Assembly (NCBI RefSeq): GCF_036507355.1
Contig: NZ_AP027877.1
Source of the DNA: Escherichia coli
GTDB taxonomy: Bacteria; Pseudomonadota; Gammaproteobacteria; Enterobacterales; Enterobacteriaceae
DNA length: 64,000 nucleotides
Reading direction: 5' to 3' (one strand)
In this document: piece by piece, positions 1,380 to 47,926 of the stretch
Layout: the number at the start of each line of letters is the position of its first letter
Position numbering within the stretch: position 1 is the first letter of the stretch
Position numbers and translations under genes: made by a program
Notes under the pieces: generated by a model
What the model was told of the DNA's origin: nothing
Database searches by the model: none
What the model saw: the letters and a program-made list of their open reading frames with translations, nothing else

Positions 1380-2146
1380 TCAGGCGGTGTGGTTGCTATC
1401 ATCTTGCATGAGATGGTTGGCTCGAAAGACCATCATCCCTTTTTGTCGAATAGCGTCAATCCACAAATCTGCCATCCACGAGTTGATGCCATAATGCTGG
1501 ATACAACATTCACGTATCAGCCGGTGTTCGTTCGCAATGGTAGTTGGCATCAAGGCGCTGTCATCCGTATTTAAACACACCGCCAGCGGCCCGCTGCGCA
1601 GGCCGTATTGGTTAAATTTTCCGCCGGTCGCCAACCATTCTGGATTAGGTGGATTCCAGCGAAAAAGCGGGTGTTCGTGATATTTCTCAAACCGACCAAT
1701 ATAAATATTTGAGGTTGGGCAGGCTTCAAACACTAAACCAAGACGGCTGTATTTTTCGGTTAGGTAATCCTGAATGGCTTCATACAGCTTAAGCTCCCCC
1801 TGAGAAATGAAATCCTCATCTTCAGACAGGGGCGACAAATAGCTATCAGTATCGTTAGGACAACAGTTAATGCAAATAATCCGGTTGGCGGGCTCCTTTT
1901 CATGCAAACCGCTGTTGAGATAGCGTTGCCATAAACGATAAGCAGTGACATTTTTCACTGACGGCGTATGATCTTCTTGCAACGCATCCCAGTCAGGGGC
2001 CCATTCCAGCCTATTCGCGCTGACGGACTCCAAGTTAGCATAATCAGGCCAATTGCGGCGCAGCAGCCACGCCTGATAAAGTAAGTTAGGCGTATAGATA
2101 TCTTTAAATATCCGCTGCGACCAGTGATGAATTTTATCGCGCAATT
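1380..2146 (-). pseudogene. C-terminal fragment of an adenosine-deaminase-family (amidohydrolase) protein, truncated by IS1
   Basis: 254-aa ORF carries the C-terminal ADA-type motifs (ACPTSN and CLNTDD) but lacks the N-terminal metal-binding half. Its reading frame runs straight into the IS1 left end at 2147. Confidence 0.5.
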
Positions 2147-2201: not shown

Positions 2202-2477
2202 GTGGCTTCTGTTTCTATCAGCTGTCCCTCCTGTTCAGCTACTGACGGGGTGGTGCGTAACGGCAAAAGCACCGCCGGACATCAGCGCTATCTCTGCTCT
2301 CACTGCCGTAAAACATGGCAACTGCAGTTCACTTACACCGCTTCTCAACCCGGTACGCACCAGAAAATCATTGATATGGCCATGAATGGCGTTGGATGCC
2401 GGGCAACTGCCCGCATTATGGGCGTTGGCCTCAACACGGTTTTACGTCACTTAAAAAACTCAGGCCGCAGTCGGTAA
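2202..2477 (+). CDS. insA: IS1 InsA (transposition repressor)
   Basis: 91-aa [46 protein letters not shown]... recognised as IS1 InsA with zinc-finger CxxC pairs. Confidence 0.9.
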
Positions 2478-2899
2478 CCTCGCGCATACAACCGGGCAGT
2501 GATGTGATTGTCTGCGCTGAAATGGACGAACAGTGGGGCTACGTCGGTGCTAAATCACGTCAGCGCTGGCTGTTTTACGCGTATGACAGGATACGGAGGA
2601 CAGTTGTGGCGCACGTTTTCGGTGAACGCACTCTGGCCACACTGGAGCGTCTTCTGAGCCTGCTGTCGGCCTTTGAGGTCGTGGTATGGATGACGGATGG
2701 CTGGCCGCTGTATGAATCACGCCTGAAGGGAAAGCTGCACGTTATCAGCAAGCGTTACACTCAGCGCATTGAGCGACATAATCTGAATCTGAGACAACAT
2801 CTGGCAAGGCTGGGACGGAAGTCACTGTCGTTCTCAAAATCGGTGGAGCTGCATGACAAGGTCATCGGGCATTATCTGAACATAAAACACTATCAGTAA
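2396..2899 (+). CDS. insB: IS1 InsB (transposase catalytic part, normally made as an InsAB' frameshift fusion)
   Basis: 167-aa ORF inside IS1 overlapping insA in another frame; sequence recognised as IS1 InsB. Confidence 0.85.
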
Positions 2900-3069: not shown

Positions 3070-6000
3070 CTATACCGTCCAGCTGTTCGACACCACTTCA
3101 GCCTGCTTCAGTATCAGTTCAACTGCATAAGGTGTTTTATCTGGCGGATACTTGTACTTACGCAGCGTCTGACGCACCAGAATACGTAACCGCGCACGCA
3201 CGCTTTCTCGCACCTGCCAGTCTACGGTTGTGGACTGGCGCAATTTTAACGTGACTTCGATAGCCAGTTTCTTAAGGACGTCATCACCCAGCTCCCGTAC
3301 CGCACTTTCGTTTTCTGCCAGCGCATCGTAGAACGCGATTTCGTCCGGGTTTAGCCCCAGCGCTTCATCACGCGCCATCGCTTCCTGAAACTCTTTTGCC
3401 ATCTGGATCAGTTCTTCAATCACCTGCGCAGTTTCAATGGCGCGGTTATTGTATTTGAGAAGCACGGCTTTCAGGCGATCTGAGTATTTCTTCTCCTGCA
3501 CCACGTTGTTTTTGGTGCGGGCATGAATGCCGTCGTTCAGCAGTTTCTCCAGCAACTCGACTGCCAGATTACGCTGCGGCAATTCGCGCACTTCTTCCAG
3601 AAACTCGTCTGACAACAATCCAATATTCGGCTTATCCAGACCCGCCAGCGCAAACACATCATCCACGCCCGTCGCAATAATGGCGTTATCGAGGATTTTA
3701 CCGAGTAGCGTATTTTTCTCTGACTGACTGAATTTTTTGTCGGTTGTCGTCAGCTTGATAATCGCCACTTTCACCGCCGACAAAAACGCGATCTCTTTTT
3801 GCAAGGGTTTAGCTTCATCTAACGTACTGCACAGCGACCAGGCTTTGTTCATCGCCAGCACGACATCGAAAAAGCGCTTCTTACCGTCATCAAGGCCCAG
3901 CACATAATCTGCGGCTTTGAGTAAAAACCGTTGGGGCACCTCTGCAAAACCGGTGTAATCAAACCCGGCGGCGGTTGGTGTTTTGGCAAACATTCCATGA
4001 ATCACATCCAGCTTTTCAAGCAGGATGGAGAACGCTTCATGAGCATCGACTGTCGTCTGTCCTTTACCTTTTGAATCGGTATAAGTTTTCAGCGCCTGTT
4101 TCAGTTCATTGGCGATACCGATGTAATCCACCACTAAACCGCCCGGTTTATCTTTGAAGACGCGGTTGACGCGCGCAATGGCCTGCATCAGATTATGCCC
4201 GCGCATCGGTTTGTCGATATACATGGTATGACAACATGGCGCATCAAACCCGGTAAGCCACATATCGCGCACAATCACCAGTTTCAACGGGTCGTTGAGA
4301 TCTTTAAAGCGCGCTTCAAGGCGTTTTTTGGTTTGCTTATTGTAGATGTGCGGCTGAAGGAATTTATTATCGGAGGCTGAGCCGGTCATGATGATTTTGA
4401 TTTCACCTTTCTCGACGTCATCACTGTGCCATTCCGGGCGTAGAGCCACCAGCGCATCATACAGCTTCACGCAGATCTCACGGCTCATGGCAACAATCAT
4501 TGCTTTGCCATTCATTGTGGCGTTACGTGCCTCAAAATGCTGAACCAGATCGGCGGCCACCTCATTGATACGAGGTTCAGAACCAACCAGTTTTTCCAGA
4601 CGGCTCCAGTCACTTTTGGTTTTCTCTTTCTGATCGGTCTCTTCATCTTCGACCAGCTCATCCACCTGATTAGACAGCGTTTCCAGCTCTTCGTGGTTGA
4701 GGTCGAGTTTTGCCAGGCGCGATTCATAGTAGATAGGCACGGTTGCGCCATCTTCCACCGCATCCTGTATATCGTAGATAGAGACGTAATCACCAAACAC
4801 CGCGCGGGTGTCTTTATCTTCGGAAGAAACCGGTGTTCCGGTAAAGCCCATAAACGACGCATTGGGTAACGCATCGCGCATATGTTTGGCGTAACCGTAT
4901 TTATAAGCGCCAGTCTCCCGGTTCAGCGTGGCGCTAAGACCATACTGGCTGCGGTGCGCTTCATCGGAAATGACGACGATATTGCTGCGCAGGTTTAGCG
5001 CCGGGTGAGTCTGTTCGCCATCAAGCGGGGCAAATTTTTGTACGGTGGTAAAAATAATCCCGCCTGATTCACGGACATTGAGCATCTCGCGGAGCTGGTC
5101 GCGATCGTTTGCCTGTAACGGTTCCTGCTTAAGCAAATCCTGTGCCTGGCAGAAGGTGGCATACAGTTGGCCGTCGAGATCGTTACGGTCGGTCACCACC
5201 ACGATGGTCGGGTTGTTCATTTCCGCTTGTTGTAGCAGTTTTCCGGCGTAACAACACATCGAGATACTCTTACCGGAACCCTGCGTATGCCACACCACAC
5301 CGGCTTTTTTACTGCCTGGCGTGATGTTGCTGCGCAGCGGCAAGTGTTTACCGGTAGAGGCCACAATCGTCGCCGTCACCGCTTCACGTACTGCGTGGAA
5401 TTGGTGGTAAGCGGCAATCTTTTTAATCAGTCGTTTGCCGTCGCTTTCAAACAGGATGAAGTAACGAATGTAGTCGAGCAGCAGTTCGCGGTTAAAGAAC
5501 CCTTTTACTACCGTTTCAAGCTGCCATTCAAACAGCGGTTTGTCGTCTTCATTAGACAGCGTTTTCCACGGCAAGAAGCGCTCTTCGTTCGCGGTGAGAG
5601 AGCCAATACGGGCGTTGTAGCCATCGCTGACCACCAGCGCTTCGTTGCAGATGAACAGATCGCTGAGTTCGTTTTTATAGGTCTGCAACTGATTAAATGC
5701 CGCCCAGATATCGGCATTAGCATCAATCGGGCTTTTCAGCTCAATCACTACTACTGGCAATCCGTTGATATAGCAGATAACGTCCGGGCGACGTACCTGC
5801 TTCGTTCCCTGGATGGCCACCTGATTCACCACCGTAAAGTGGTTATTATTTGGGTGGTTAAAATCCATCAGTAGCGCTTTGTCGTGGATAACTTTGTCAT
5901 CCTGCTTGTACTGCACCGGCACGCCGTCGAGCAGCAGGTGATGGAAGGCTTTGTTACTGACGACCAGATCCGGGCTTTGCGCATGGGCGATACGCAGTAT

Positions 6001-6204
6001 CACCTCATCCAGCACGGCAACCGGGAGATGTGGGTTAATCTTTTGCAACTGCTCCAGTAGCACCGGGCGCAAAAACACATCGTGGAACGACGCACGCAGC
6101 GGATTGTTGCCATCTGGCGCAATATCCGGCCCGTGCAATACTTCCCAGCCCAGTTCAGCAAACCATTGCAGGCTTTGCTGTTCTAAATCGTCTTCGCTCA
6201 GCAT
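3070..6204 (-). CDS. hsdR: Type I restriction enzyme R subunit HsdR (1044 aa)
   Basis: Walker A ([11 protein letters not shown]), DEAH box ([11 protein letters not shown]) and overall helicase/translocase architecture. Last gene of the hsdM-hsdS-X-hsdR operon; its start overlaps the stop of the upstream gene. Confidence 0.85.
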
Positions 6205-7391
6205 CAGGTTTCCTCTGTCTCGGTTTCTTCCATTTCTTCGGGCACGTTTGAAATCTCTTTGAGCGCCATATTCAGTGGGGCAATAAAGGGATCTAACGCT
6301 TTTTCAAATGCCGTCAGGTTTACCAGTAGCCAGTCGATCATTTCAGGCCAGTTGGCTTCATCAAGGCTGATGGCCGGGCTGGCATAGGAAATTCGACACG
6401 ATTTTTTACCCGGCAGAGGTTCCCACTTAAGCGCATGGCCAAACGCGTTTTCAATTGCCTCTTTGCGTTCATGTAGCCAGTTAAAAGCAAAGGTATTGCT
6501 CTCTGCGGAAGCTTTGGCAATCCACAGCTCAACCCGAATCTCTTTTTTACTGAAAATCAGGTTATACGACACCGCGCTAATACCAGAGCCCGCACTGATC
6601 CAGTGATCGGTAGAGGGGCTGATATTGTTATATAAGTGGCAGGAGCTGGCTTTGAGGCGCTCCAGCATCTTTGTCCAGAAAGCTTTACGCATTAATTGGA
6701 CTGGCTTTACTCCGCCGCTGACGGATTGTTCTTCCGCCTCTTTTTGCGCCATACCGATCATGTAAGATTCTGCTTCCGGTGTGGGGATAACCTGACGGAT
6801 ATCAACGAATACATCGTCGTTGAACTTATAGGGTTTAACCTTAAAGCACTGTACCCGCAGACCAAATTGCATGAGCCACAGGGCAGTGTTGGTCACCTCT
6901 TTGCGAAAGTTGGCTGCGACCATGATGATTCGCTGTGTACGGCTCTGGTTGATTAAGGCTTCATCCAGCGTTTCATATTCGAGGAATTCAGCAAGCACCT
7001 CTGCCGCCGGGCGATTTTCCTCTGGGTCGTATTTATCCAGATAAAGCTGGAAGATCTGCAGAATTTGCTCTTTACGCAGGTTGGCGCAATACCCGGCATA
7101 TTTGAGCGCTTGCCAGACGACGTCGCGACCTGAATCATCGAGCTTATTCTCGATGATCACCAGATTGCCTTTTTTATCGATAGCCAGCAGGTCAAGGCGC
7201 TCTTTGGTGTCGTCAAAACCGGCGAACTCTTTCTGTATAATCAGTAGTTCATCGTCATTATCGCGAGTTAACGCTTGGGGATTCTGCGCCAGCCATTCCT
7301 GCAGATTGCCACGTTCGGTAAAACCAAGACTACTGAAAGAGACTTCCTGTAGGGAGTGTAAGCTGTTAGTCGGCGTATCAACTTTATACAT
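6204..7391 (-). CDS. PD-(D/E)xK (NucS/DUF91-like) nuclease-domain protein embedded between hsdS and hsdR (about 395 aa)
   Basis: Motif [21 protein letters not shown] resembles a restriction-endonuclease-fold D...ExK core. No Walker A, so not PrrC. Start and stop overlap hsdS and hsdR (translational coupling). Confidence 0.5.
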
Positions 7392-8769
7392 TTTCCACCT
7401 CACTGACTGCCTGTTCTGCTTCCTGCAGGGTAATTTCACCCGAGAGAAGTTTGGGGAGAAGGGTGTCGCGGAGTTGGGTTAGTGATTCAGTTTGTACACT
7501 GAGCGATTTAATCTCATTAAATAAATGTGTACATTTGGCATGAAATAACTCCAATACTTTAGCATCAGGCTGAGCGATTTTAATTCCTGAGAAAGTAGAC
7601 GTATTGACATTTAAAGTTGCACTACCTGCGCTACCTAAAATGTGAAGATGATCTTTCAATCCCAACATACAAAAATAAAGATAATAGAGTAAGGAACTCT
7701 TATGAGGTGTAACAGAATTTATTTGCTGATTGGTATGAGATGGTTCATTGGTGATAGAAACAACACCAATAGTAGCTATACAACTAACACAGATAGAATT
7801 TGCGGGTACAAGTTTTTTTAGTTGCGACTTTGAACCGGCTTCGCTTAAATATTCATTAGTTTTAAGCACAAAAAGTTGCCCATGCATATCTGGTATCTTT
7901 ATGAATGGAACATCACTACCGTAATACTCTGGTTCTTTTTTTGACGGAGTTTTGCCACAAGTAACCTTCCCCATCTCACTAATTGACGCCACCCCCCATC
8001 CTTTAGGAATCGCCCCTAACTCACTGTCCTGCATCGCTGCCGGAAACAGTTCTGCCGTGGCTTTTAACTCGGCATATTGCTCAGGGTGTTCACGCTCAAA
8101 AACCGCCAGCGCATCCGCATCTTTCCCAGAAATGGCGGTCATGGCGGCAAGTGTTGCGTCTGCCTGCGAACCGCCCGCATCCAGTACTGCCATTTTGGCT
8201 TTTACGGGGTCAAAATCAACAAACCAACTTTTGAACAGGGCTTGTGCCATTTGTTCGAGGGTTTGGTTGATGCGATTATTACTATCAATTTTTTTACTTA
8301 ACGTAAAAATTAGCTTTGTACATCTTTTTTGATATTTTAAAGAAGGAATCTTTATTTTGTAGCTCAGCATGGCCCCTTTATCACCTCGAGGCATTTTTGC
8401 GCCCTTGGATGTAAGATGGCTATAATTAATAAAATCATCACTGCTTAAAATCAAATGTAAATATTCACTTGTGAGTTTTTCATGTGTAGTCCTAAATACT
8501 AGCACATCAGGAGAAACACCTCCGTAAAATGTGGCAAACCATACTTTTTTAAAGTACGTTCGAATATTAGAAAATAAAGTATCACCTATTTCAAAAGAAT
8601 TAAATTTGTTGACATCAGGGATGCCTGATGAAATAGTTACACCCTGACGGTCAGGCAACATATTTTCCGTGGAAATATAATTAGTAACATCTATAATAGA
8701 TGCATCACATTTTTTTGTGACTATCTCTACAAAGTTACCTAACTCAGTTTCGATGAACTCAAAACTCAT
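7384..8769 (-). CDS. hsdS: Type I R-M specificity subunit HsdS (about 461 aa)
   Basis: Sits between hsdM and hsdR with size and position typical of HsdS; start overlaps the hsdM stop. The track ORF start at 8826 is rejected in favour of the ATG at 8769. Confidence 0.7.
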   Translation of the reverse strand: MSFEFIETELGNFVEIVTKKCDASIIDVTNYISTENMLPDRQGVTISSGIPDVNKFNSFEIGDTLFSNIRTYFKKVWFATFYGGVSPDVLVFRTTHEKLTSEYLHLILSSDDFINYSHLTSKGAKMPRGDKGAMLSYKIKIPSLKYQKRCTKLIFTLSKKIDSNNRINQTLEQMAQALFKSWFVDFDPVKAKMAVLDAGGSQADATLAAMTAISGKDADALAVFEREHPEQYAELKATAELFPAAMQDSELGAIPKGWGVASISEMGKVTCGKTPSKKEPEYYGSDVPFIKIPDMHGQLFVLKTNEYLSEAGSKSQLKKLVPANSICVSCIATIGVVSITNEPSHTNQQINSVTPHKSSLLYYLYFCMLGLKDHLHILGSAGSATLNVNTSTFSGIKIAQPDAKVLELFHAKCTHLFNEIKSLSVQTESLTQLRDTLLPKLLSGEITLQEAEQAVSEVENV

Positions 8770-10468
8770 AACCCAGCCCCCCCAGATTCGCCTTAATCTG
8801 CGCTTCCAACTTCGCGCTCTCTTCAAGCTGATCTTTAAGCTGCGCCGTCAGGCGCGCCATCTTCTCGGCAAACGGTTCATCATCTTCAGCTTGCTCGGCG
8901 GCACCAACGTAGCGCCCAGGGGTCAGCACAAAGTCGTTTTTCTGGATATCCTCCAGCGTTGCTGAGAAGCAGAATCCGGCTTCGTCTTCGTAGTCTTTAT
9001 CCGTCTGCCAGGCGTGGAAGGTATCGGCAATTCTGGCGATATCTTCGCGGGTAAAGTCGCGCAACACGCGATCTTTCATATAACCAATCTGGCGCGCGTC
9101 GATAAACAGCACTTCACCTTTACGGTGCGCTTTGCCGTTGCCACCGGATTTATCTTTGGTCAGGAACCAGATACAGGCTGGGATTTGGGTGTTGGTAAAC
9201 AGTTGCCCTGGCAGCGCCACCATACATTCCACCAGATCCGCTTCAATCAGGTTGCGGCGGATCTCGCCTTCATTGTTAGTGTTGGAACTCATCGAACCGT
9301 TCGCCAGCAGCAGCGCCATCGAACCTTTTGGCGCGAGGTGGTGGATCATGTGCTGCATCCACGCAAAGTTGGCGTTGCCCTGCGGCGGTGTGCCGTATTT
9401 CCAGCGCACGTCGTTTTCCAGCTTCGCGTTCCACCACTCCTTCATGTTGAACGGCGGGTTTGCCATCACGAAGTCAGCGCGCAGATCCGGGTGCTGGTCG
9501 TCTAGCAGGGTGTCGGCGTTTTTGGCACCAAAGTTAAAGTCGATACCGCGGATCGCCATGTTCATCGCCGCCAGCTTCCAGGTGGTCGGATTCGACTCCT
9601 GGCCGTAAACGGAAATATTGCGCTTCTGCTCAGCGGCGTTGTAATTCTTTTCGCCCGCGTGCTCTTCAATGAAACGGTCGCTGGAAACGAAGAACCCGCC
9701 GGAACCCATTGCCGGGTCATACACCCGCCCGTTGTACGGTTGCAGCATTTCGACAATCAGGGTCACGATGCTTTTTGGCGTGTAGTACTGACCTCCCTGT
9801 TTACCTTCCGCCAGCGCGAATTGCCCCAGGAAATATTCGTAAACGTGGCCGAGAATATCTTTGCTCTTTAAGCTGAGTTTCTCGCCGTTATATTCCGGGT
9901 TGCTGAAGTTTGCGTCAGAGAAGGTATTAATCAGCCCGGTCAGCACCTCGTTACTCAGTTGATACTGGCTGATGCGATTCAGAATACCTTTCAGTTTCGG
10001 GTTGGTTTTTTCGATTTCATCCAGCGCGTTATCCACCAGCCAGGAGACAGAGCGCAGCGTCACATCCTTGCCGGTGGTTTCATCCACCCACAGCACGGTG
10101 CCGGTCGGCAACATGGCTTTGTTTTTCAGCGTGTCCCAGCGCGCGGCTTTTGGCACCCAGAAGATGTTCTTTTCGGTGTAGTAATCTTCAACTTCCAGCT
10201 CTTCCTGGATAGCCTGAGCGTATTCTTCGTCGGAACCGTAATCATCGCGCGACATGGCGTAGATGTTGTCGGGATTACCGACATCGCGGAACAGGGTCGT
10301 CAGCTCCTGCTGACGCGCCTCGAAGGCATCAGAAACATACTTCAGGAAGATTAGCCCCAGCACCACATGCTTGTAGTTGGCGGCATCCATATTGGCGCGC
10401 AGTTTGTCGGCGGCCTTCCAGAATTTGTTATCCAGCTCGTTCAGAAATAGCTGTTCAGCGTTGTTCAT
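8759..10468 (-). CDS. hsdM: Type I R-M DNA methyltransferase subunit HsdM (about 569 aa)
   Basis: N6-adenine methyltransferase catalytic motif NPPF (FVMANPPFNMKEW) and an AdoMet-binding region (VYDPAMGSGGFF); first gene of the operon. Confidence 0.85.
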   Translation of the reverse strand: MNNAEQLFLNELDNKFWKAADKLRANMDAANYKHVVLGLIFLKYVSDAFEARQQELTTLFRDVGNPDNIYAMSRDDYGSDEEYAQAIQEELEVEDYYTEKNIFWVPKAARWDTLKNKAMLPTGTVLWVDETTGKDVTLRSVSWLVDNALDEIEKTNPKLKGILNRISQYQLSNEVLTGLINTFSDANFSNPEYNGEKLSLKSKDILGHVYEYFLGQFALAEGKQGGQYYTPKSIVTLIVEMLQPYNGRVYDPAMGSGGFFVSSDRFIEEHAGEKNYNAAEQKRNISVYGQESNPTTWKLAAMNMAIRGIDFNFGAKNADTLLDDQHPDLRADFVMANPPFNMKEWWNAKLENDVRWKYGTPPQGNANFAWMQHMIHHLAPKGSMALLLANGSMSSNTNNEGEIRRNLIEADLVECMVALPGQLFTNTQIPACIWFLTKDKSGGNGKAHRKGEVLFIDARQIGYMKDRVLRDFTREDIARIADTFHAWQTDKDYEDEAGFCFSATLEDIQKNDFVLTPGRYVGAAEQAEDDEPFAEKMARLTAQLKDQLEESAKLEAQIKANLGGLGYEF

Positions 10469-10800: not shown

Positions 10801-11724
10801 GTGTTTTTTGAATATATAACAGGTAAAACTATGTCCTGGCTTAATTCTGTCTTATTGGCGCTTACCTCGGTGCAACCTTATATGGTACCGGCAACCGTTA
10901 TCGGCCTCGTCAGTTTTGCATTCCTCTGTTTTATTTTCTTTTATTTTTTTAGAGCAGTTAAAATTATTAACGGCCTGAAAAAATATACTCAGTCAATTAA
11001 TGGCATCGAAAATAATGAGCCTGGTAATCAGCTTCAGCATCTGCAAAGTTTGTTTGTACAGCCTGAGTTAAAGCACGCCTGGAATGAATTCGAAGAATCG
11101 TTGCACTCACAATATGAACTGGAGGACGGGGAAGAGAAAATCGTCCGTATTAGGGCTACTGCACCGAGCGCCAGTTTCTTCTCGGAGCAACAACTGGTCG
11201 ATATTCCGCTGAACACCGAATTTTTCAAACACCTGCCCGGTATTCTGACCGGTGTGGGGATTATCGGTACCTTCTACGGTCTGATGATTGGTCTCAACCA
11301 CTTCGACCCCAGCACACCAGAGCAGGTCTCCAGCAGCGTCAATAATCTGCTTCGCGATGTGCTGTACGCCTTCCTCGGTTCAGCATTTGCGATTACGTTC
11401 TCTATCCTTATCACCTGGCTGGAGAAATTCTGTCTGGCGAAATGCTACAAATATCTGGAAAAATTCACCGCAGCTCTCGACGCCCTCTATGACAGCGGTG
11501 TTGGCGAGGAGTACCTTGCCTCACTGGTAAAATCCAGTAATGAAAGCGCGACCCAGGCACGCCATCTGAAAGAGAGCCTGGTTACCGATTTACGCGATAT
11601 GCTGCTGCATCTGGCCAACAGCCAGAAAGTGGAAAACGAGCGGCTAGCGACCACCCTCAGCACCACCTATCGCGAAACAGGACAACAGTTTGCCGAGCAA
11701 GTCAGCGGTGCGATTGAAAACTGA
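10801..11724 (+). CDS. MotA/TolQ/ExbB-family proton-channel (stator-like) membrane protein (about 297-307 aa)
   Basis: Three predicted TM helices with TolQ/ExbB-like spacing. TM2 carries the family signature (LPGILTGVGIIGTFYG, compare TolQ GLFGTVWG). The stop codon TGA is formed by the first three bases of IS629, so the 3' end is disrupted or altered by the IS. Confidence 0.55.
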   Translation: MFFEYITGKTMSWLNSVLLALTSVQPYMVPATVIGLVSFAFLCFIFFYFFRAVKIINGLKKYTQSINGIENNEPGNQLQHLQSLFVQPELKHAWNEFEESLHSQYELEDGEEKIVRIRATAPSASFFSEQQLVDIPLNTEFFKHLPGILTGVGIIGTFYGLMIGLNHFDPSTPEQVSSSVNNLLRDVLYAFLGSAFAITFSILITWLEKFCLAKCYKYLEKFTAALDALYDSGVGEEYLASLVKSSNESATQARHLKESLVTDLRDMLLHLANSQKVENERLATTLSTTYRETGQQFAEQVSGAIEN

Positions 11725-11775: not shown

Positions 11776-12102
11776 ATGACTAAAAATACTCGTTTTTCCC
11801 CCGAAGTCCGTCAACGGGCAGTCCGTATGGTTCTGGAAAGTCAGAGCGAATATGACTCACAATGGGCGACAATTTGTTCCATTGCTCCAAAGATTGGCTG
11901 TACGCCGGAGACTCTGCGTGTCTGGGTTCGCCAGCATGAGCGGGATACCGGGGGCGGTGATGGAGGGCTCACCACCGCTGAACGTCAGCGTCTGAAAGAG
12001 CTGGAACGTGAAAATCGTGAACTGCGCCGCAGTAACGATATCCTTCGCCAGGCTTCCGCTTATTTTGCGAAGGCGGAGTTCGACCGCCTCTGGAAAAAAT
12101 GA
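11776..12102 (+). CDS. IS629 OrfA (helix-turn-helix transposase N-terminal protein)
   Basis: [23 protein letters not shown]...; IS3-family OrfA with a leucine zipper near the C-terminus. Confidence 0.85.
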
Positions 12103-12989
12103 TGCCACTGCTGGATAAGCTGCGTGAGCAGTACGGGGTCGGACCGCTATGCAGCGAACTGCATATTGCCCCGTCAACGTATTACCACTGTCAGCAACAG
12201 CGACATCATCCGGATAAACGCAGTGCCCGTGCGCAGCGCGATGACTGGCTGAAGAAAGAGATACAGCGCGTATACGATGAAAATCACAAGGTATACGGTG
12301 TGCGTAAAGTCTGGCGTCAGTTGTTACGGGAAGGTATCAGAGTGGCCAGATGCACTGTGGCACGTCTCATGGCGGTTATGGGACTTGCCGGTGTTCTCCG
12401 GGGTAAAAAGGTCCGTACGACCATCAGCCGGAAAGCCGTTGCCGCAGGCGACCGCGTAAACCGTCAGTTCGTGGCAGAACGACCTGACCAGCTGTGGGTG
12501 GCTGATTTTACTTACGCCAGCACATGGCGGGGCTTCGTCTATGTGGCGTTCATCATTGATGTGTTTGCCGGATACATCGTGGGGTGGCGGGTCTCATCGT
12601 CCATGGAAACGACATTCGTGCTGGATGCACTGGAGCAGGCGTTATGGGCCCGTCGACCGTCCGGCACGGTCCATCACAGTGATAAAGGTTCTCAGTATGT
12701 ATCGCTGGCCTACACACAGCGGCTTAAGGAAGCCGGATTACTGGCATCAACAGGAAGTACAGGCGACTCGTATGACAACGCGATGGCGGAGAGCATCAAT
12801 GGTCTTTACAAAGCGGAGGTAATACACCGTAAGAGCTGGAAAAACCGTGCAGAAGTGGAACTGGCCACACTCACGTGGGTGGACTGGTATAACAATCGAC
12901 GATTGCTGGAAAGGCTGGGCCATACTCCTCCGGCAGAAGCAGAAAAAGCTTATTATGCTTCCATCGGAAACGATGATCTGGCAGCCTGA
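12099..12989 (+). CDS. IS629 OrfB (DDE transposase; expressed by -1 frameshift with OrfA)
   Basis: IS3-family integrase/DDE core (WVADFTY... HSDKGSQY... DNAMAES); overlaps orfA in the -1 frame. Confidence 0.85.
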
Positions 12990-13153: not shown

Positions 13154-13999
13154 ATGTTACGTGGTTCAGAAAGAAAAGAAGCATTAGCCAGTCTCAAAAG
13201 TGCAACTAACCGTTATGAAGTACAGGCTAAAGACACCCAGGATGAGATCACTGCCCTCTTTCTGTTACGCCAGAAATGCAGTAAGGACCTGATTGCCCGT
13301 GGTGAAAATTTTGTTAATCGACTGGCGAATACACCGAAAGAGTTTGATAAATCCTGGAGCGAATTGAAAGCGGAAATCGCTGAATTTGATAACGTGGTGG
13401 AAAAACTGGAAGAAGAATACCGCGCATCACATATTGGTAAAGGAACGGCTGCTGCGGGGGTTGCCGTTGGGGCGGGGGTCGCCGCATTTGCCCCTACGGC
13501 TGCGCTGGCGGTCGCAACAACTTTTGGTACAGCATCCACGGGTACCGCTATTGCTACGTTAAGCGGAGCTGCCGCAACAAATGCAGCCCTGGCATGGCTC
13601 GGCGGCGGCGCACTGGCTGCGGGTGGCGGTGGCATGTCAGCAGGAAGCGCACTACTGGCTCTGGCGGGTCCAATAGGCTGGGGGATTGGTGCTGTAGGCA
13701 TCGCTGGCGGAACCTTACTAGCCCGTCGCAAAAACGGTAAAATCATTGATGAAGCACAACAGGAAGAGCGCCAGGTTCGCGCAAAAACCAGCGAACTTCG
13801 CGTGATGGAACGTGGTGCGCAAGAACTCAAGATGCTCACATCCGAGCACTATCATGGTACTGAAAGCATTATTGATGTGCTGGAAAAGGCTGCGCCTCAA
13901 GACTATTGCCAGTTTAATACCCATCAGAAAGATCAATTAGGGGCATTGATTAACCATATCAATGCATTATCAAAACTGATCAACAAGAAAATCCAGTAA
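13154..13999 (+). CDS. Hypothetical protein with central Gly/Ala-rich glycine-zipper membrane segment (281 aa)
   Basis: Helical N- and C-terminal regions flank a Gly/Ala-rich hydrophobic stretch of about 100 aa (GTAAAGVAVGAGVAAF ... GWGIGAVGIAGG). Its stop overlaps the next start (TAATG). Confidence 0.5.
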   Translation: MLRGSERKEALASLKSATNRYEVQAKDTQDEITALFLLRQKCSKDLIARGENFVNRLANTPKEFDKSWSELKAEIAEFDNVVEKLEEEYRASHIGKGTAAAGVAVGAGVAAFAPTAALAVATTFGTASTGTAIATLSGAAATNAALAWLGGGALAAGGGGMSAGSALLALAGPIGWGIGAVGIAGGTLLARRKNGKIIDEAQQEERQVRAKTSELRVMERGAQELKMLTSEHYHGTESIIDVLEKAAPQDYCQFNTHQKDQLGALINHINALSKLINKKIQ

Positions 14000-15444
14000 T
14001 GAGCATTAACCATAATACAGTTGGCGACCAGCTTATCGGCAGCGCGGTTAACGCCATTAATCAGACCCGCATTGATAATGAACTGTTAAAACTATCGCAG
14101 CAGGATCGTGCATTTGAGTTGGCTGGCGAACAAATGCAAAAGGTGCGTGATTTCATCGCGTCACCGGGTAACATCCTGGGCTCAATGAGCACCAAACACG
14201 GTGAAATTGCTGAGCAGGTAGAAGTTGGCGTGCGCAATGCTCGCCAGGCAATAGAAGAAAGGGTTCAGGATGCCTCTGATCTTAGCGCCACGTTTGACGG
14301 AGTGGGTCGAACCGCTCCGGCGGATTATATGATAGATGGCGTTGACGTGCAGTCAAAGTTTATCAACGGAGTTAATAATAACCTGAACCATGTCCTTCAG
14401 CACATGGAAACCTATCCCAATTTCACCCGGGGAGAATCCTTTTACCATATCCCCAAAGACTCCTGGCAAACGATTCAGGATGTTATTGATGGGAAGCCGG
14501 TGGAGGGCTTGAGCGAAAAAACAATACAGGCTATCAGGGATAAAGTTGCAGAAATTGAAAGTACAACGGGAAGATCCTTTAATGATGTCGTGCGTCCTGG
14601 AGTTTCTGATTACAAAGATGTTCAGTGGGGAAAAATTGACGAAACTCTTGATAAACATGATCAGGAATTAGCGGAACAGAACGAGGCAAAAAAAGCAGAA
14701 ATTATTGACGATCACCAACCCTCCCTAAGTGAAGGCATGCGTGCAACCGCAATGGGAGCCGCTTTCGGTGGAACCTTTGCTCTTGTAACAGGTATATATA
14801 GCAAATACCGTGACGGTAAAAATATATTTCGTGGAGATTTCAACAGACAGGACTGGCAGGATGTCGGCTTAGATACATTGAAAGGTGCCGCTATTGGCGG
14901 TGTATCCGCCGGAGCAATTTATACCCTGACCAATTATGCCTCTCTGGGAGCACCGTTCGCCAGCGCGCTGGTCACTGCCGCTAAAGGTGTAAGCAATCTT
15001 GCTCTCTCCTATCAGCGCGGTGAGATTAATGCTGATGAATTTACCGATCTTGGCCTTATCATCTGCGCGGAATCGGCCATCGTTGGCGCAATGTCTGTCG
15101 CAGGTCAGGCAATCATCCCTGTGCCTGTTTTGGGGGCATTGGTTGGTTCTATCTCAGGGAAGTTTATGGTTACCGTAGCTAAAAATCTGGACAGTAAAGC
15201 ACGCCAATTGCTGGCGAAAAAAATGGAGCAATTTACATGTCGCTTAAGTGAGATTGAGCAGAAAGCACTCAACCGAATTTTGAACGAGTTCGCGGCGCTG
15301 GGTGAGCTTACCGCAGCTGCATTTAGCGTGGAAAACAATCGCCGGTTGCTGGAAGCAAGCATCACGCTTGCCCAAGCCCACGGTGTTGAAGAGGCGAAGA
15401 TAATCAAAAATGCGGATGATCTTGACACATTTATGATGGCGTAG
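13999..15444 (+). CDS. Hypothetical protein with C-terminal glycine-zipper membrane segments (481 aa)
   Basis: Soluble N-terminal region of about 240 aa, then several Gly/Ala-rich hydrophobic segments (GAAFGGTFALVTG, GAAIGGVSAGAIYT, AIVGAMSVAGQAII). Translationally coupled to the upstream gene. Confidence 0.5.
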   Translation: MSINHNTVGDQLIGSAVNAINQTRIDNELLKLSQQDRAFELAGEQMQKVRDFIASPGNILGSMSTKHGEIAEQVEVGVRNARQAIEERVQDASDLSATFDGVGRTAPADYMIDGVDVQSKFINGVNNNLNHVLQHMETYPNFTRGESFYHIPKDSWQTIQDVIDGKPVEGLSEKTIQAIRDKVAEIESTTGRSFNDVVRPGVSDYKDVQWGKIDETLDKHDQELAEQNEAKKAEIIDDHQPSLSEGMRATAMGAAFGGTFALVTGIYSKYRDGKNIFRGDFNRQDWQDVGLDTLKGAAIGGVSAGAIYTLTNYASLGAPFASALVTAAKGVSNLALSYQRGEINADEFTDLGLIICAESAIVGAMSVAGQAIIPVPVLGALVGSISGKFMVTVAKNLDSKARQLLAKKMEQFTCRLSEIEQKALNRILNEFAALGELTAAAFSVENNRRLLEASITLAQAHGVEEAKIIKNADDLDTFMMA

Positions 15445-15480
15445 CACTCGAATAAAAATTACAGCAAGGATAAAACCACA

Positions 15481-18003
15481 ATGCTACAGATAATTGGTGC
15501 GTTAATTTTACTGGTAATCGGTTTTGTTATTATAAAAGCGTTGTTTAAGGCATCTCTCAATATTCTAGGTGTGATATTAGGATTGGGTGCATTGATTGTT
15601 GCAGGCCCACCTTTATTGGCGGGCTATATTGTAGAGCGCGTAACCTATGCGCTTCACTCACGTTGGCTGCTGGGTGTACCTCTTGCCATAGCAGGAATGG
15701 TGATTAGCTTTATGTGGGGACTTGATGGTAAACATATTGCCTACGAAGCCTATTCATTTGATTCAATGAAGTTTATTTTAACCGCTGCATTTGCCAGTGG
15801 CCTGCTTGCAGTACCTGTACAAACCAAGGCTATTCTACAAAACGGGCTTATACCAGCCGATATCAATGCCAAACTTAAAGAGTATTATTGCTGTTTTTAT
15901 ACGTCTTACTTTTTGATGGCCTGCTCTGCGGCTACACCGTTTATAGCCTGGCAATATAATATCTCATCTTCACTGATGTGGTGGACAGGATTGCTATACT
16001 GGATAGCAGCCTTACTGACACAGTTCTATGCGGCAAACCAAATTCAGGAACTCAAGAAGTTAACTAATGCCATCAATACAGGGTTAAATGAGCAAAAAGC
16101 GATCAATAACCAACTTTGGCTGACGGAACTAAAAGAAGGAAGTAACCTCTCAGCAGAATTCGTAGAGACTATCTATCTTAAGTTGGTCTCACAGCATATT
16201 TTTCAGGGCGATACTCGAGAGCAGGATCTGGCTGGTGAAAACTGGCTTTTAAATGATGCCTGGTATGAAAGAAAGATGGCTGAATTTAATGAGCAGTTAA
16301 ACAGTAAAATTGTACACTCATCAGATGAGCTAAGAAGCCTTTTTGGTAATAGGCTGAATTTACCCTCTGCTGCGAATGATGATCTCCTGAACCGTTATCT
16401 TGATGGTGGGAACTATTATTCTTTTTCGGATGGTCGAAAATTTGTCTCGTTTCACTATGTCGACGAGCTTTGTACCTGCACTTCATGCGGTTTGAGCGAG
16501 ATTAAAAACGCAAAACACCAGGACGGTTGTGGGAGCCAGGAATGGTATTGCTCTGATATTTGCCGGGAAACGGAAAAACTCTGCATTGAAATTCACAAGC
16601 GACCACAGGCTGAATTTATTTCCAGTGCAGCAACAAACGGTCTGATTCTCATGACGCTCCCGGAGGCCTGGAATACTAACGAAAAAATGTTTGCAGTGGG
16701 AGGACAAGGACATGGTTTTGCAGCCGAACGGGGAAATCATCTTACTGACAAAATCCAACTAAAAGATGCACATATTCTCGGTGATGATAATGCGAAAAAT
16801 GGTGCAGACAGGCTGGTTAACGGTTCAGAGATTCAGACCAAATACTGTGCAACCGCTGCACGTAGCGTCGGTGCTGGTTTTGACGGACAAAACGGTAATT
16901 ATCGCTATTATGACAGTAACGGAACCCCAATGCAGTTAGAGGTTCCGAAAGACCAGTATTCGAAAGCGCTTGAAACGATGGAGAACAAAATTCGCGATGG
17001 CAAAGTCCCCGGCGTTACCGATCCTGCAGAAGCCACAAAACTTGTACGTCAGGGACACCTGACTTATAGCCAGGCACAAAACATTACTAAGTTTGGCACG
17101 TTCGAATCTATCACTTACGACATTGCGGAAGGATCTATCATCAGCCTCGCAGCTGGAGGTATCAGCTTCGGTCTGACAGCTTCTATTTTCTACCTCAATA
17201 CCGGCGATCGTAAGGCTGCGTTGCAAACGGCAGCAATACAGGCAGGTAAAACATTTACCCGCACACTGACAGTTTATGTGACGGTACAGCAATTACACCG
17301 TATCAGTGCCGTTCAGGGGTTACTTAAAAATATTGATTTTGCCGCTGCCAGCCCGACAGTTCGTAATGCGCTTCAACAGGGAGTCGGAGCTAACAATCTC
17401 AACTCCCTTAACAAGATGATGCGTGGCACACTGGTTACCTCTTTCGCACTGGTCGCCGTGACCACTGGTCCGGATATGATCAAAATGGTGCGAGGTCGTA
17501 TTTCTGGGGCACAGTTTATAAAAAATCTGGCAGTTACTTCATCTGGTGTGGCTGGGGGGGCAATTGGTTCTATTGCTGGCGGAATGATGCTTAGTCCATT
17601 AGGTCCTTTCGGTGCTTTAGCAGGACGCGCAGCTGGTGGCTTGTTAGGCGGTATGATTGCCACAGCGATTTCCAAAAAAATAGCGGGTGCACTGGTTGAA
17701 GACGACCGAGTAAAAGTGCTGGCTCTCATCCAGGAACAGGTTACATGGCTTGCAACAAGTTTCATGCTTACAGCACACGAACTTGAAAACCTGAACGCGA
17801 ATCTGGCAACAGTAATTGACCAAAAAACCCTGGAGGTTATCTTCGCCGCAAAAGAGCAAGACCGAGCAACGGCCAATATGCTGATTAAACCACTTGTAGT
17901 AAGTGTGGTTAAGCAACGACCGGTCCTGAGCTATGAACAATCGCAAATCTGCGAAATGGTCGATCAGCTTGATACATCGGTTTCATTATCTGCTGTTGCA
18001 TAA
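15481..18003 (+). CDS. Hypothetical large membrane protein (840 aa): N-terminal multi-TM domain, Cys-rich zinc-ribbon-like segment, C-terminal glycine-zipper region
   Basis: About six N-terminal hydrophobic helices; Cys cluster CTCTSCGLSEIKNAKHQDGCGSQEWYCSDICRETEKLC; C-terminal Gly-rich segment SSGVAGGAIGSIAGGMMLSPLGPFGALAGRAAGGLLGG. Confidence 0.5.
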   Translation: MLQIIGALILLVIGFVIIKALFKASLNILGVILGLGALIVAGPPLLAGYIVERVTYALHSRWLLGVPLAIAGMVISFMWGLDGKHIAYEAYSFDSMKFILTAAFASGLLAVPVQTKAILQNGLIPADINAKLKEYYCCFYTSYFLMACSAATPFIAWQYNISSSLMWWTGLLYWIAALLTQFYAANQIQELKKLTNAINTGLNEQKAINNQLWLTELKEGSNLSAEFVETIYLKLVSQHIFQGDTREQDLAGENWLLNDAWYERKMAEFNEQLNSKIVHSSDELRSLFGNRLNLPSAANDDLLNRYLDGGNYYSFSDGRKFVSFHYVDELCTCTSCGLSEIKNAKHQDGCGSQEWYCSDICRETEKLCIEIHKRPQAEFISSAATNGLILMTLPEAWNTNEKMFAVGGQGHGFAAERGNHLTDKIQLKDAHILGDDNAKNGADRLVNGSEIQTKYCATAARSVGAGFDGQNGNYRYYDSNGTPMQLEVPKDQYSKALETMENKIRDGKVPGVTDPAEATKLVRQGHLTYSQAQNITKFGTFESITYDIAEGSIISLAAGGISFGLTASIFYLNTGDRKAALQTAAIQAGKTFTRTLTVYVTVQQLHRISAVQGLLKNIDFAAASPTVRNALQQGVGANNLNSLNKMMRGTLVTSFALVAVTTGPDMIKMVRGRISGAQFIKNLAVTSSGVAGGAIGSIAGGMMLSPLGPFGALAGRAAGGLLGGMIATAISKKIAGALVEDDRVKVLALIQEQVTWLATSFMLTAHELENLNANLATVIDQKTLEVIFAAKEQDRATANMLIKPLVVSVVKQRPVLSYEQSQICEMVDQLDTSVSLSAVA

Positions 18004-18840: not shown

Positions 18841-19072
18841 CGCCTCTTTGATAACGCATCATACTGCCAGCGGAATAACTCTCTTCGTCAATACGGCTCT
18901 CGCTGTACGCTTACCCATCTAGAGAGGTTTCAGGTGATTATCGATGTCAGAAGACTGAATGATTCAGTCGTTTACTTTGAGATAGATCAGAGGTTTTTCA
19001 CTACCTGTGTTCATCACATGGCTACGAATAGTAGAATCCAAGCATAAATTAACGCTTAGAAAAGTTGAGCTC

Positions 19073-22000
19073 ATGAGATTCCACCCTGAAGGGCCTTCCA
19101 TACCCGATATCCTCTTAGAACGCTGTGATACAGGTCGAGTTGTATTTCTCTGTGGCGCTGGGGTTTCATTACCTTCAGGGATGCCAAGCTTTGTAGAGCT
19201 TACCCAGCATGTAATTGAATACTTTGACCCACCACACGATTCAGAAATCATGGCAGCATTTCGCCCATGGCTTCACGACCAATCTTCAGCTAATGTCCCT
19301 CTCGACCAAATTTTCAACCTCCTACATCTGGAATATGGCAAGGATGAGGTGAATGCTTTGGTATCAAAGCGTCTGGGGACTGCAAGAACTGATATAGAGA
19401 TTGGACGTGAGCATGCCCTGATTAAAAGAATTTCCTCAAATCAGAGTGGTGTCCCACAGATTGTCACAACGAACTTTGACCGACTGTTCGAGGATAACCA
19501 AGCGCAAGATAATCTAACTCGATATGTGCCGCCAGCTTTCCCAAATCTGAATTTCGGTTCGACAATTGAGGGAATAACATATCTTCACGGCCGCCTGGTC
19601 GACGAAAATGCTGTAAACCATCCTTATGTGCTGAGCAGTGCAGACTTTGGAAGAGCATATCTTTCAGAAGGATGGGCGACCAATTTTATTAAGCTTCTTC
19701 TGGAACGATACATCGTTGTTTTGGTCGGTTATCAGGCAGAAGACCCACCAGTTAAATACCTCCTTCAGGGTCTCAATCATGATGGCCAGTATGATCGTTC
19801 CAGACTTTATGCATTTGATCGCGGCCTTGCCGAGGATATCGAAGCCAAATGGCGTGACAGAGGAGTTACAGCCATAGCCTATTCCGATCATCCAGCTCTT
19901 TGGAAGACTTTGGAAGCATGGGCTGAGCGAGTAGATGATCCACGTCGATGGCGAGCTTCTATTATCGCTAAAAGCCAGCAAGATCCGAAAGTTCTAGCAC
20001 CGTATGAACGTGGTCAACTTGCCCATATACTTCGCACTACACAAGGTGCGAAATTGTTCTCTGAAGCTGTTCCTCTTCCCCATCCAGAGTGGCTTTGTGT
20101 GATGGATGCAAATATTCGGTCAGCCAAACAGAAGAAAAGATACTACGAACTTGATGACAATGATGCAGAGACCTTCGATCCACAAGAAGCTTATGGGCTT
20201 GATGACGATCTGCAAGATATCGCTGATGATGAACGTAAACGTGGAGTGAGTAACGATAATCTCCTTGAATAGCGCGACGAAGATGATAACCCGTCAGATT
20301 ACCATCGCTTGGCTGGATGTTTGGAGACAATGCCGAAACGATTGAGCCATCTCATGGTCTGGTTCTGCAAATCTCTTGATAGCCCCGTGATGGCTTGGTG
20401 GGCTATCCGAAAAATCAGTATTCATCCTCTACTACTACAAAATATTGAACGCAATATTGAGCATTCAACATCAATCCACAAACGCGCTCGTCAACTGTGG
20501 GGCTTAATTCTTGAACATCATAAAGATCCCCGCAATCGTCGTTATGACGTCGATTGGTACGACTTAAAAGCTCGAATTACAAAACAAGGCTGGACAGCTG
20601 GTGTCTTACGAGAATTTCGTAGGGTAATGACACCCCGATTGGAAAAGAAGTTGCCGTATGGATTGGGTGAAGTCAGACCGCCAAGCGGCTCCTGGGAGGA
20701 AATTCAGTTCAGCGAATTTGGCCAATTTGAAGTTGTGTTCACCGAAAGACATGATGACGATTTAGACGTACCTGACAATGTATTACTACAAGTATTTAAT
20801 GCCTTAGAAGCGCAAATAATAATTGCCTCCGGAATGTTAGAGGATATTGATACGCACTACTTTCCAAGCCCAAGTTGTTATCCAGAACGTGCGGTTGAAG
20901 GAGAAGAACATTTCGCGAAAGGTGCGGAGGTATTAACTTGGTTTGTCCAACTTTTAGACCGAGTTGTTATGAAGTGGCCAGAATTGGCTAAGGCATAAGT
21001 AACAACTTGGCCAGTTAAGGAGCCATTTTTCTTCCGAAAGCTTAGACTTTATGCATTCAGTAAAAAAGGCGTCTTTGAGGCTGACCGTGTTGCCGAAGAG
21101 CTTTTGTCTTTGGATCAAAGTGGATTTTGGGACACAAATATTACCCGCGAACTTCTTTTTCTGCTCACTGATCGTTGGGAAGAATTCTCGCAAGAAAATC
21201 AGAATCGAATTATAGAGCATATATTAACCGGCCCGAACCATTTACTTTATTTGTCTGAGGAAGACATTCCAAAAGAAAGAGAGATATTAGCAGCTAGATA
21301 CGCTCGTTATCTCGAACTAAACGGCTGTAAAGTAACCACTATTCATCGTGACCAACTAACTGCGATGATTAAAAGAATTCCTGACTGGAATGATGGCTGG
21401 GCTACATCTGTTGTCATCAATTGGGGTTCACGGACAGGTTGGGTTCGTACAGACGAAAAGCCAGATATAATCTTAGATCTTCCAGCAAACGAAATAATCC
21501 CAAAAGTAAAAGAGATACTTAAACGAGAGGATGATAGCTTTACTAGTAGGCAACCCTTTGTCGGATTGATAAAAGAAAATCCGCGTAAAGCTTTGTCTGC
21601 ACTCGCTATTGCAGGGAGAGGCGGTGATTACCCTAAGGAATTTTGGTCGCCAATGATAAGTGAGTTACCTATAGATCTTAAACCAAGGGTGAGACGAGTA
21701 TTCCTGAACCGAATTGTGCGATTGCCAGTTACAGCTTTGGTCGAGTTACGACATACATTAAGTAACTGGCTTGAACAAAATTTAGCTGCGACTCTTGAAT
21801 TTGATGAGGATCTCGGGTGGGCAGTTTACGATCATGTCATAGCAGGCATACTGAGTGGTGGCGCCAGTGCAATACGGAGTAGTTTCGGAGAAGTTATCCG
21901 GAATGGAGAAGTTGTAATACAGTCTCGCCGCACGTTCAGTCATGCAATCAATGGTCCTGTCGGTAAATGTACTCAAGCGCTTTTTCAAGCAATGCCAAGT

Positions 22001-22882
22001 GAAGAGAAAAAAGCTGGTTCGCTTATTCCTTACTCTATTAAGTCTCGTATTGAACATCTTTTTACTGCACCAGGAGAAGGAGCGGACCACGCTATAGCTA
22101 TAACGTCTCGCAATCTAAATTGGCTAATGTTTGTTGATCCTGCATGGGTAAAGGAATGGCTTATACCCCTTTTGGATTTAAAACATCCTGCAGCAGAACC
22201 AGCATGGAATGGTTATCTTCAGTGCAATGCTATGCCTTCAATTGCAGTAGCTGAACTTATTAAACCAGCTTTTCTTAACCTTATCCCTTGGATCGAATCT
22301 CTTTCTTGGGAAAAAGATTATTCAGTTCGAGCTTCGCAATGGCTTGGCTTAATGAGAATGTTTCACCCTGATGAGCCCTCCAGTCCTTCCAGGAATGAAA
22401 TGCGCTCCATATTACGAGCATTATCTGACGAGGCTCGAAATCGTTTTATTTCCTGGTTAGGATTGGTCGGGCAGAAAAACGAGAGTGGCTGGGTTAAGTA
22501 TGTGATCCCATTAATCAGAGAGGACTGGCCCAAAGAACGCCAATATAGAACCACGAGCTCTGTAAAAGCATGGATTGGTTTACTTGACGATACTGGCGAT
22601 AAGTTTCCGGAGGTTTACGATTCAGTAAAAACATACTTAGTACCAATCGAGACAATTGATCATTTGTTCTACAGATTCACTCGGGAGCTCGGTGGTAAAG
22701 GAGCAATTGCGGCTATTTTTCCAGAAACCACGCTTGATTTAATGGACAAAATAACACCACTGATATTCACGCGTACATCAGGAGAGCTGCAGAAGATTCT
22801 TGAGCTAATTGAAGATACAGATACAAGTCTGATCAAGGATTCTCGGTACTTACGGCTTATTGCACTGGTTGAGAAAAATTAG
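19073..22882 (+). pseudogene. Large SIR2-domain protein gene (about 1,270 codons) interrupted by two in-frame stop codons
   Basis: N-terminal SIR2-like motifs (VVFLCGAGVSLPSGMPSF; IVTTNFDRLFE). Track ORFs 19007-20272, 20309-20998 and 21104-22882 all lie in the same frame, separated only by TAG at 20270-20272 and TAA at 20996-20998. Confidence 0.65.
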
Positions 22883-29443: not shown

Positions 29444-29606
29444 TGGGGGCATCTCCCTGGACCGAACACAGAATGCCCCCACTTATGCCCCCAACTGTAA
29501 CTTGATTCCGGTTGAGTCCAGTTGATAACAGGAGATAAAATACGGGCTAGAAACCGCAGTATACGGGCTTTTAGTTGATTTCGGTAGACTTGGGAAGAGT
29601 TTGAAA

Positions 29607-43149: not shown

Positions 43150-43178
43150 CTTTGCTGTATATCGAGGCTGTATATCGA

Positions 43179-43219
43179 GCAATGCCATTATGTGCATAAA
43201 ATTGGCATTGCTCTTTTTT
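43179..43219 (+). terminator. Candidate rho-independent terminator downstream of treA
   Basis: Inverted repeat GCAATGCCA ... TGGCATTGC followed by CTCTTTTTT. Confidence 0.5.
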
Positions 43220-46249: not shown

Positions 46250-46258
46250 GGAAAAATC

Positions 46259-47922: not shown

Positions 47923-47926
47923 TTCT

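Follow-up and report, generated by a model that had tools for sequence, protein, structure and literature searches.

A probable type IV-like nuclease of the PDC-S11/MdgA family carried between hsdS and hsdR of an Escherichia coli type I restriction-modification operon

Defence genes nested inside other defence operons have been described before. Two genes that interrupt the type I restriction-modification (R-M) cluster of Vibrio cholerae VPI-2 constitute TgvAB, a type IV system against hypermodified T-even phages, and TgvAB and type I systems have been argued to be complementary (Vizzarro et al., PMC11411939). Payne et al. 2024 (bioRxiv 10.1101/2024.01.29.577857) took genes embedded within BREX, DISARM, or type I R-M loci and from them defined 145 phage defence candidates (PDC), a set that PADLOC now includes; they cited PrrC as the extreme case, a system that rarely occurs other than embedded in type I R-M. 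Here, we analyse a 64,000-nucleotide stretch of Escherichia coli DNA (assembly GCF_036507355.1, contig NZ_AP027877.1; hereafter the window), in which the hsdS-hsdR interval of a type I R-M operon contains an additional gene that we call X. We consider it probable that X acts by itself as a single-protein, type IV-like restriction nuclease, that it belongs to the PDC-S11/MdgA family, and that it is carried as cargo in the hsdS-hsdR gap of an otherwise complete type I operon.

The one tested protein of this family is MdgA (modification defence gene A), published in Cell Host Microbe in 2025 (PMC12366544; 10.1101/2025.02.28.640651); it was recovered from a human gut metagenome and is described as “NucS + DUF4268” in a single polypeptide. 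In E. coli, MdgA protects against T4 and Mu, but not against unmodified T4-GT7, and the purified protein degrades glucosyl-hydroxymethylcytosine T4 DNA far better than T4-GT7 DNA (PMC12366544). The E77A substitution inactivates it, protection is strong in the absence of induction, and one gene is enough in a heterologous host; its authors propose substrate recognition for DUF4268 (PMC12366544). DUF4268 also occurs fused to GmrSD-type type IV enzymes (PMC4619093), and MdgB combines DUF4268 with a PD-(D/E)xK domain (PMC12366544).

By open reading frame (ORF) calls, the four genes of the window’s operon are co-directional on the minus strand. The order hsdM-hsdS-X-hsdR and the overlap of every junction, both reported in the initial annotation, are borne out: hsdM and hsdS overlap by 11 nt, hsdS and X by 8 nt (ATGTATAA), and X and hsdR by 1 nt (TGATG). 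The features are as follows.

3070-6204, minus strand: hsdR, restriction/translocase subunit, 1044 aa, apparently intact
6204-7391, minus strand: X, PDC-S11/MdgA-family protein, 395 aa; RefSeq WP_021579902.1, “DUF4268 domain-containing protein”
6285-6692, minus strand: X residues 234-369, DUF4268 (proposed substrate-recognition module)
6783-7391, minus strand: X residues 1-203, N-terminal NucS/RecB-like PD-(D/E)xK nuclease domain
7098-7112, minus strand: X motif Q94-xxx-Y98, RecB/NucS-type motif IV, invariant in 75 sequences
7143-7193, minus strand: X catalytic core D67...E81-N-K83
7384-8769, minus strand: hsdS, specificity subunit, 461 aa, with two target-recognition domains, in a low-GC segment
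8759-10468, minus strand: hsdM, type I R-M methyltransferase subunit, 569 aa; RefSeq WP_057081041.1
10547-10574, minus strand: candidate sigma-70-like promoter TTGTAA-16-TATCAT upstream of hsdM, from a consensus scan alone, 9/12 matches

X belongs to PDC-S11. It matches the PADLOC model PDLC04913 with an E of 3e-173 and 574 bits, its residues 1-379 aligning to profile positions 1-373 of 375, and all eight PADLOC PDC-S11 models match it. At E ≤ 0.01, a PADLOC scan of X returned PDC-S11, S18, S26, and S02 models alone. The family is large: at least 6927 clusters at 90% identity are homologous to X (E ≤ 1e-5), and the 50%-identity cluster representatives that match X number 5064 at E ≤ 1e-3 and 418 at E ≤ 1e-30. 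Some family members carry precomputed Pfam NucS (PF01939) and DUF4268 assignments. Within E. coli, the X gene is accessory, occurring in 59-151 of 5426 genomes. The initial annotation had suggested a module of a different type, a novelty that falls away, since the family is PADLOC PDC-S11, itself defined by such embedding, and DUF4268 is a known domain.

The N-terminal domain of X has a NucS/RecB-type PD-(D/E)xK active site. The NucS/DUF91-like motif quoted in the initial annotation spans residues 67-83 and aligns to the catalytic residues of NucS. When a profile of the X-family alignment was compared with Pyrococcus abyssi NucS (PDB 2vld) residues 159-193, the spacing was identical, with D67/E81/K83/Q94/Y98 of X aligned on D160/E174/K176/Q187/Y191 of NucS. 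Across an alignment of X and 74 homologues (75 sequences, 28-94% identity), E26, D67, K83, Q94, and Y98 are invariant, E81 is present in 74 of the 75 sequences, and E55 is present in 97%. The AlphaFold2 model of X (pLDDT 91.5) has two domains and a linking helix, with residues ~100-203 forming one compact unit with the nuclease core, followed by the interdomain helix; its pTM of 0.59 leaves the relative orientation of the two domains uncertain.

The C-terminal region, previously listed as unassigned, contains Pfam DUF4268 (PF14088; E 2.6e-36) at residues 234-369; the Pfam scan of X also gave a weak hit to PDDEXK_4. Conservation is about twofold higher in the nuclease domain (44% all-pairs identity) than in DUF4268 (23%), and E. 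coli matches to the X gene at the DNA level end at about nucleotide 917 of 1188. The roughly twofold faster evolution of DUF4268 fits a specificity module. The DUF4268 fold resembles type III secretion system chaperones, is typically protein-binding, and gave no match to a known modified-base reader. The faster divergence of the domain fits substrate recognition, and its chaperone-like fold would suit dimerisation or protein docking equally.

X is not a PrrC-like anticodon nuclease, in agreement with the initial annotation. The Walker A pattern [AG]xxxxGK[ST] was not found anywhere in X, and its sequence matched neither PrrC/RloC models nor ATPase families in PADLOC, profile, and Pfam scans. 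The same PADLOC and Pfam scans and Walker A search revealed no recognisable sensor or nucleotide-binding domain.

The host type I system appears complete and intact, with HsdM, HsdS, and HsdR all represented. HsdM matches PADLOC MTase_I (E 3.6e-177, 589 bits) and TIGR00497 (E 2e-48), the latter with 165 bits, which is under the model’s cutoff of 242.75. Its start was taken from RefSeq; an alternative longer ORF extends to 10507. HsdS matches PADLOC Specificity_I (E 2.9e-113, 377 bits), and GC content in the hsdS region is 0.39-0.43 (window 7000-9000). HsdR, for which EcoR124I HsdR is the nearest solved relative, matches TIGR00348 (E 1e-193, 645.6 bits versus a cutoff of 284.55) and PADLOC REase_I (1202 bits). 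It retains nuclease residues D141/E156-x-K158, a Walker A sequence (GSGKS) at 309, and DEAH at 414. X is thus not a replacement part, and compensation for a nuclease-dead HsdR is ruled out.

The X start codon (ATG at 7391) is preceded by a GAGG Shine-Dalgarno sequence, and an N-terminal M-Y/F is kept in homologues. Several complete E. coli genomes contain X and its flanks at 100% identity, and RefSeq annotates the same four genes there, naming the partners of X “class I SAM-dependent DNA methyltransferase”, “restriction endonuclease subunit S”, and “type I restriction endonuclease subunit R”. The candidate promoter upstream of hsdM has a weak basis, as promoter-like sites in the region are no commoner than in shuffled sequence. 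Consensus scans for internal promoters or terminators that might uncouple X from the operon likewise gave no excess over shuffled sequence.

The hsdM-hsdS-X-hsdR arrangement is not a chance juxtaposition. It recurs with homologues from Cronobacter sakazakii (95% identity, with a type I Zorya system adjoining as in E. coli), Pseudomonas lundensis (84%), and Klebsiella oxytoca (73%), as well as in many other genera. At 61% identity to X, two other situations are found: a Providencia homologue comes after an hsdR-hsdM-hsdS cluster of the EcoEI family, which is a different type I family, and an E. coli homologue is solitary on IncFII plasmids, with R-M genes absent nearby.

We surveyed more distant contexts by scanning one genome per species, which yielded 80 loci with homologues of 46-57% identity to X. 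Flanks were annotated on crude ORF calls with two-round hidden Markov models (HMMs) seeded from the window’s Hsd proteins, and context counts use 49 loci, those with flanks of 4 kb or more on both sides. The gene lies between hsdM/S and hsdR in 20 of the 49 loci, the same position as in the window; 6 of these are as tight as in the window, and 14 have additional genes in the gap. It directly follows hsdM-S-R in 3 loci, and type I genes are near in some other arrangement in 5. Type I loci make up well under 1% of a typical genome. The presence of type I genes within 9 kb of 28 of the 49 loci therefore represents a very strong enrichment.

Embedding in type I and other defence loci is thus recurrent, although it is not obligatory. 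Type I genes were not detected in 21 of the 49 loci, which is an upper bound because the window-seeded HMMs can miss divergent type I families. Among these loci, some copies lie beside gyrA, parC, or rpoC, and one is directly upstream of DISARM drmA. Other neighbours include a Gabija-like ATPase and UvrD helicase pair and a type II-like methyltransferase. Nearest neighbours share their context in 79% of cases, against 52% expected from permutation (none of 2000 permutations was as high as observed), yet context switches are seen even between 96%-identical proteins. The solitary IncFII homologue, the loci without detected type I genes, the DISARM, Gabija-like, and type II contexts, and these switches all support autonomy. 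Taken together, the results portray a mobile defence gene, sufficient in itself, for which the hsdS-hsdR gap is a very frequent location. X is an extra nuclease gene from a family of defence candidates, and its relatives show strong linkage to R-M and other defence loci; neither of the two outcomes named in the initial annotation as refuting its reading (X as an HsdR-associated domain lacking independent function, or homologues never linked to R-M or defence) was therefore observed.

Unrelated defence systems also use the hsdS-hsdR gap, a general cargo site. In other species, it holds PDC-S23/S05 (loci L010 and L011), DarT-DarG (L013), and Septu PtuA-PtuB (L017). In Marinomonas (L038), a pair matching DUF262 GmrSD-like models adjoins the X homologue, and in Celerinatantimonas (L051), a pair of 458 and 657 aa, similar in size to the Marinomonas pair, lies beside it. 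The gap of L016 contains a 194-aa protein without a hit and a 519-aa protein with a partial BnzA match only. In three Providencia loci (L097-L099, 4764-5855), a 363-aa gene without a Pfam hit separates hsdS from the X homologue, and a SIR2_2 protein is encoded after the homologue; the 363-aa gene may be another embedded defence candidate.

By analogy with TgvAB, and from the MdgA data, the most likely activity of X is cleavage of hypermodified phage DNA that has evaded the type I enzyme. X would act as a type IV-like, modification-dependent endonuclease, its nuclease domain cutting DNA and its fast-evolving DUF4268 helping to select hypermodified DNA. Made from one transcript with HsdM, HsdS, and HsdR via translational coupling, X would attack DNA that escapes through base hypermodification, while the type I enzyme would attack unmodified foreign DNA. 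No physical partnership with the Hsd proteins would be required.

The active site forms part of the link to MdgA. The published MdgA E77A primer encodes V-I-V-A-N-K-L-D-D, where X has V78-I-I-E81-N-K-L-D-D. In 51 of the 75 aligned family members, the glutamate equivalent to X E81 is residue 77, its modal position, within [VIL]3-E-N-K-L-D-D. In a search for the MdgA sequence, the E77 primer with its codon restored had no exact match in metagenome_contigs, and the MdgA start-region primer had eight matches, none within an X-family gene. A protein search seeded with P0157 (MYKVNI..., the most MdgA-like N terminus) returned no protein with both YKVNIP and VIVENKLDD.

Several points weigh against an MdgA-like, autonomous role for X. 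The homology between X and MdgA is inferred from a domain description, a nine-residue motif, and the position of that motif, rather than from a full alignment, and the activity proposed for X is drawn by analogy. Specificity for modified DNA may not transfer across so divergent a family, in which C-domain identity is ~23%. The argument for autonomy draws on more distant relatives, and the clade nearest X is mostly type I-embedded and translationally coupled, which leaves room for functional cross-talk.

One form that such cross-talk could take is an accessory or backup role coupled to the type I enzyme. X would be recruited by, or would sense, HsdM/S/R and fire when the enzyme is blocked (for example, by Ocr), as with PrrC and EcoprrI; alternatively, it would process DNA reeled in by HsdR. 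X does occupy the slot of PrrC in the prr locus, as the initial annotation pointed out, and its overlapping junctions imply co-translation and stoichiometric co-expression. The four-gene unit is kept at 73-95% protein identity in Cronobacter, Klebsiella, Pseudomonas, and E. coli, context clusters by phylogeny, and the Providencia homologue adjoins a type I system of a different family. We nevertheless regard coupling as unlikely, given that homologues stand alone on plasmids and beside housekeeping genes or lie within DISARM, Gabija-like, and type II contexts, that MdgA is sufficient by itself in a heterologous host, that the gap houses unrelated defence systems generally, and that HsdR has an intact nuclease of its own. 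The earlier proposal of a backup module survives only as complementary cover, in which the type I enzyme acts on unmodified DNA and X probably on hypermodified DNA; there is no sign that X is triggered by type I failure.

A related and improbable alternative is that, within the clade of X, in which the four-gene unit is conserved across Enterobacterales and Pseudomonas, the four proteins form a hybrid type I/type IV complex; X might, for example, be loaded onto DNA by HsdM2S or by the HsdR translocase, or be licensed upon stalling or inhibition of the type I enzyme. DUF4268 would then be a docking module and not a modification reader.

There is a similarly slim chance that X is an abortive-infection nuclease, that is, a non-specific DNase that is inactive until infection and then degrades host and phage DNA, so that defence is achieved by cell death. 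The chaperone-like fold of DUF4268 could be autoinhibitory or serve as a protein sensor. However, purified MdgA degrades T4 DNA and spares T4-GT7 DNA with no need for an infection signal, MdgA is strongly protective in non-inducing conditions, and X has no recognisable sensor or nucleotide-binding domain. The initial annotation had also raised a suicide module, a suggestion disfavoured by the direct degradation of modified phage DNA by MdgA, a relative that acts as a single gene (PMC12366544).

We reject as highly implausible a housekeeping, NucS-like repair endonuclease for non-canonical mismatch repair that sits in the operon by happenstance: the motifs and fold of the nuclease core do match NucS best, but the NCBIfam NucS equivalog NF003270 gives X 15.2 bits against a cutoff of 216 with profile positions 159-202 alone aligning, the NucS N-terminal domain is missing with DUF4268 in its stead, E. 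coli already has MutSLH, and X is an accessory gene within defence islands.

The operon belongs to a multi-system defence island that occupies approximately 1-29.5 kb of the window, next to ycgV/dhaR. Downstream of hsdR and beside an insertion sequence (IS) of type IS1 (1380-2144, minus strand; 2202-2899, plus strand), a 254-aa ORF matches the C-terminal end of RdrB alone (profile positions 606-853 of 855) and probably represents what is left of a RADAR system. On the other side of the operon (10830-11721 and 11776-12989, both plus strand), a type I Zorya remnant comprising about the first 297 zorA codons abuts an IS3-family element. The near-identical E. coli strain ET826 (NZ_CP100901.1) has an intact zorA-zorB-zorC-zorD set between hsdM and the same IS3 element, which indicates that ~7.2 kb was deleted in the window’s strain.

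Further along the island, 13154-18003 (plus strand) encodes a PDC-M09 candidate pair (A, E 2.4e-120; B, E 2.9e-214), followed by an 840-aa hypothetical protein without a PADLOC hit. In a Dsr1-like gene (19007-22882, plus strand), a stop codon splits the SIR2 ORF into 19007-20272 and 20309-20998; this ORF is intact in ET826 (663 aa). The ORF that comes next (21104-22882, plus strand) matches the C-terminal part of Dsr1. Olokun-like genes lie at 23853-27843 on the minus strand (OloB, E 4.8e-58; OloA, E 7.5e-77), and an integrase-length ORF at ~28247-29482 (minus strand) aligns with an ORF that is annotated as an arm-type integrase in ET826. Differences from ET826 outside the island (27326, 31124-33617, 43091-49895, and 54672-56599) comprise an ISKpn26 copy that is present in ET826 and absent from the window, and three window segments without a counterpart in the compared ET826 stretch.

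Both the arrangement and the family are already represented in the literature and in PADLOC, through PDC-S11, MdgA, and the precedent of an embedded type IV system. X is therefore a further example, another well-documented defence gene nested inside a defence operon, and current concepts are unchanged by it. It does provide, in WP_021579902.1, a concrete E. coli representative of a family of more than 5000 clusters (50% identity) of which MdgA is the sole member tested. Two questions appear useful: whether a type I enzyme and a type IV-like nuclease on one transcript close the escape route offered by base hypermodification, and what role DUF4268 plays. The E. coli operon is suited to testing both the domain and type I/type IV complementarity.

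Compared with the known systems, X shares with PrrC its placement as a defence gene embedded in a type I operon, in the hsdS-hsdR interval (prr: hsdM-hsdS-prrC-hsdR). PrrC, which the type I enzyme regulates, combines an N-terminal ABC-ATPase-like domain that carries a Walker A motif with a nuclease domain for the tRNA-Lys anticodon, whereas X has a DNA-cutting-type PD-(D/E)xK nuclease and solitary homologues. NucS/EndoMS, the archaeal and actinobacterial mismatch endonuclease, has the same RecB-type motifs (D, E-x-K, and Q-xxx-Y). The correspondence extends over ~110 residues; X lacks the N-terminal DNA-binding/dimerisation domain, has DUF4268 instead, and occurs in a different context.

TgvAB, which is GmrSD-like, resembles X in being nested in a type I R-M operon and in its modification-dependent restriction, which for X is presumed. 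It is unrelated to X in sequence and consists of two DUF262/DUF1524 proteins (ParB-like NTPase and HNH), whereas X is one protein with PD-(D/E)xK and DUF4268 domains. GmrSD-DUF4268 fusions and MdgB, like X, join DUF4268 to the nucleases of modification-dependent restriction enzymes; the fusions differ in their nuclease partners (DUF262/DUF1524), and MdgB differs in domain order.

The closest matches are PDC-S11 and MdgA. X matches the PDC-S11 HMM from end to end, and its embedding is the very basis on which PDCs were defined; PDC-S11 itself has the status of a computational candidate, with function unassigned in Payne et al. MdgA and X both combine a NucS-like nuclease and DUF4268 in one polypeptide of ~370-395 aa, with homologues across many phyla, and place the catalytic glutamate in nearly the same setting (V-I-V-E77-N-K-L-D-D in MdgA and V-I-I-E81-N-K-L-D-D in X). 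They differ in that MdgA is a metagenome insert assayed as an isolated gene, whereas X resides inside a type I R-M operon.

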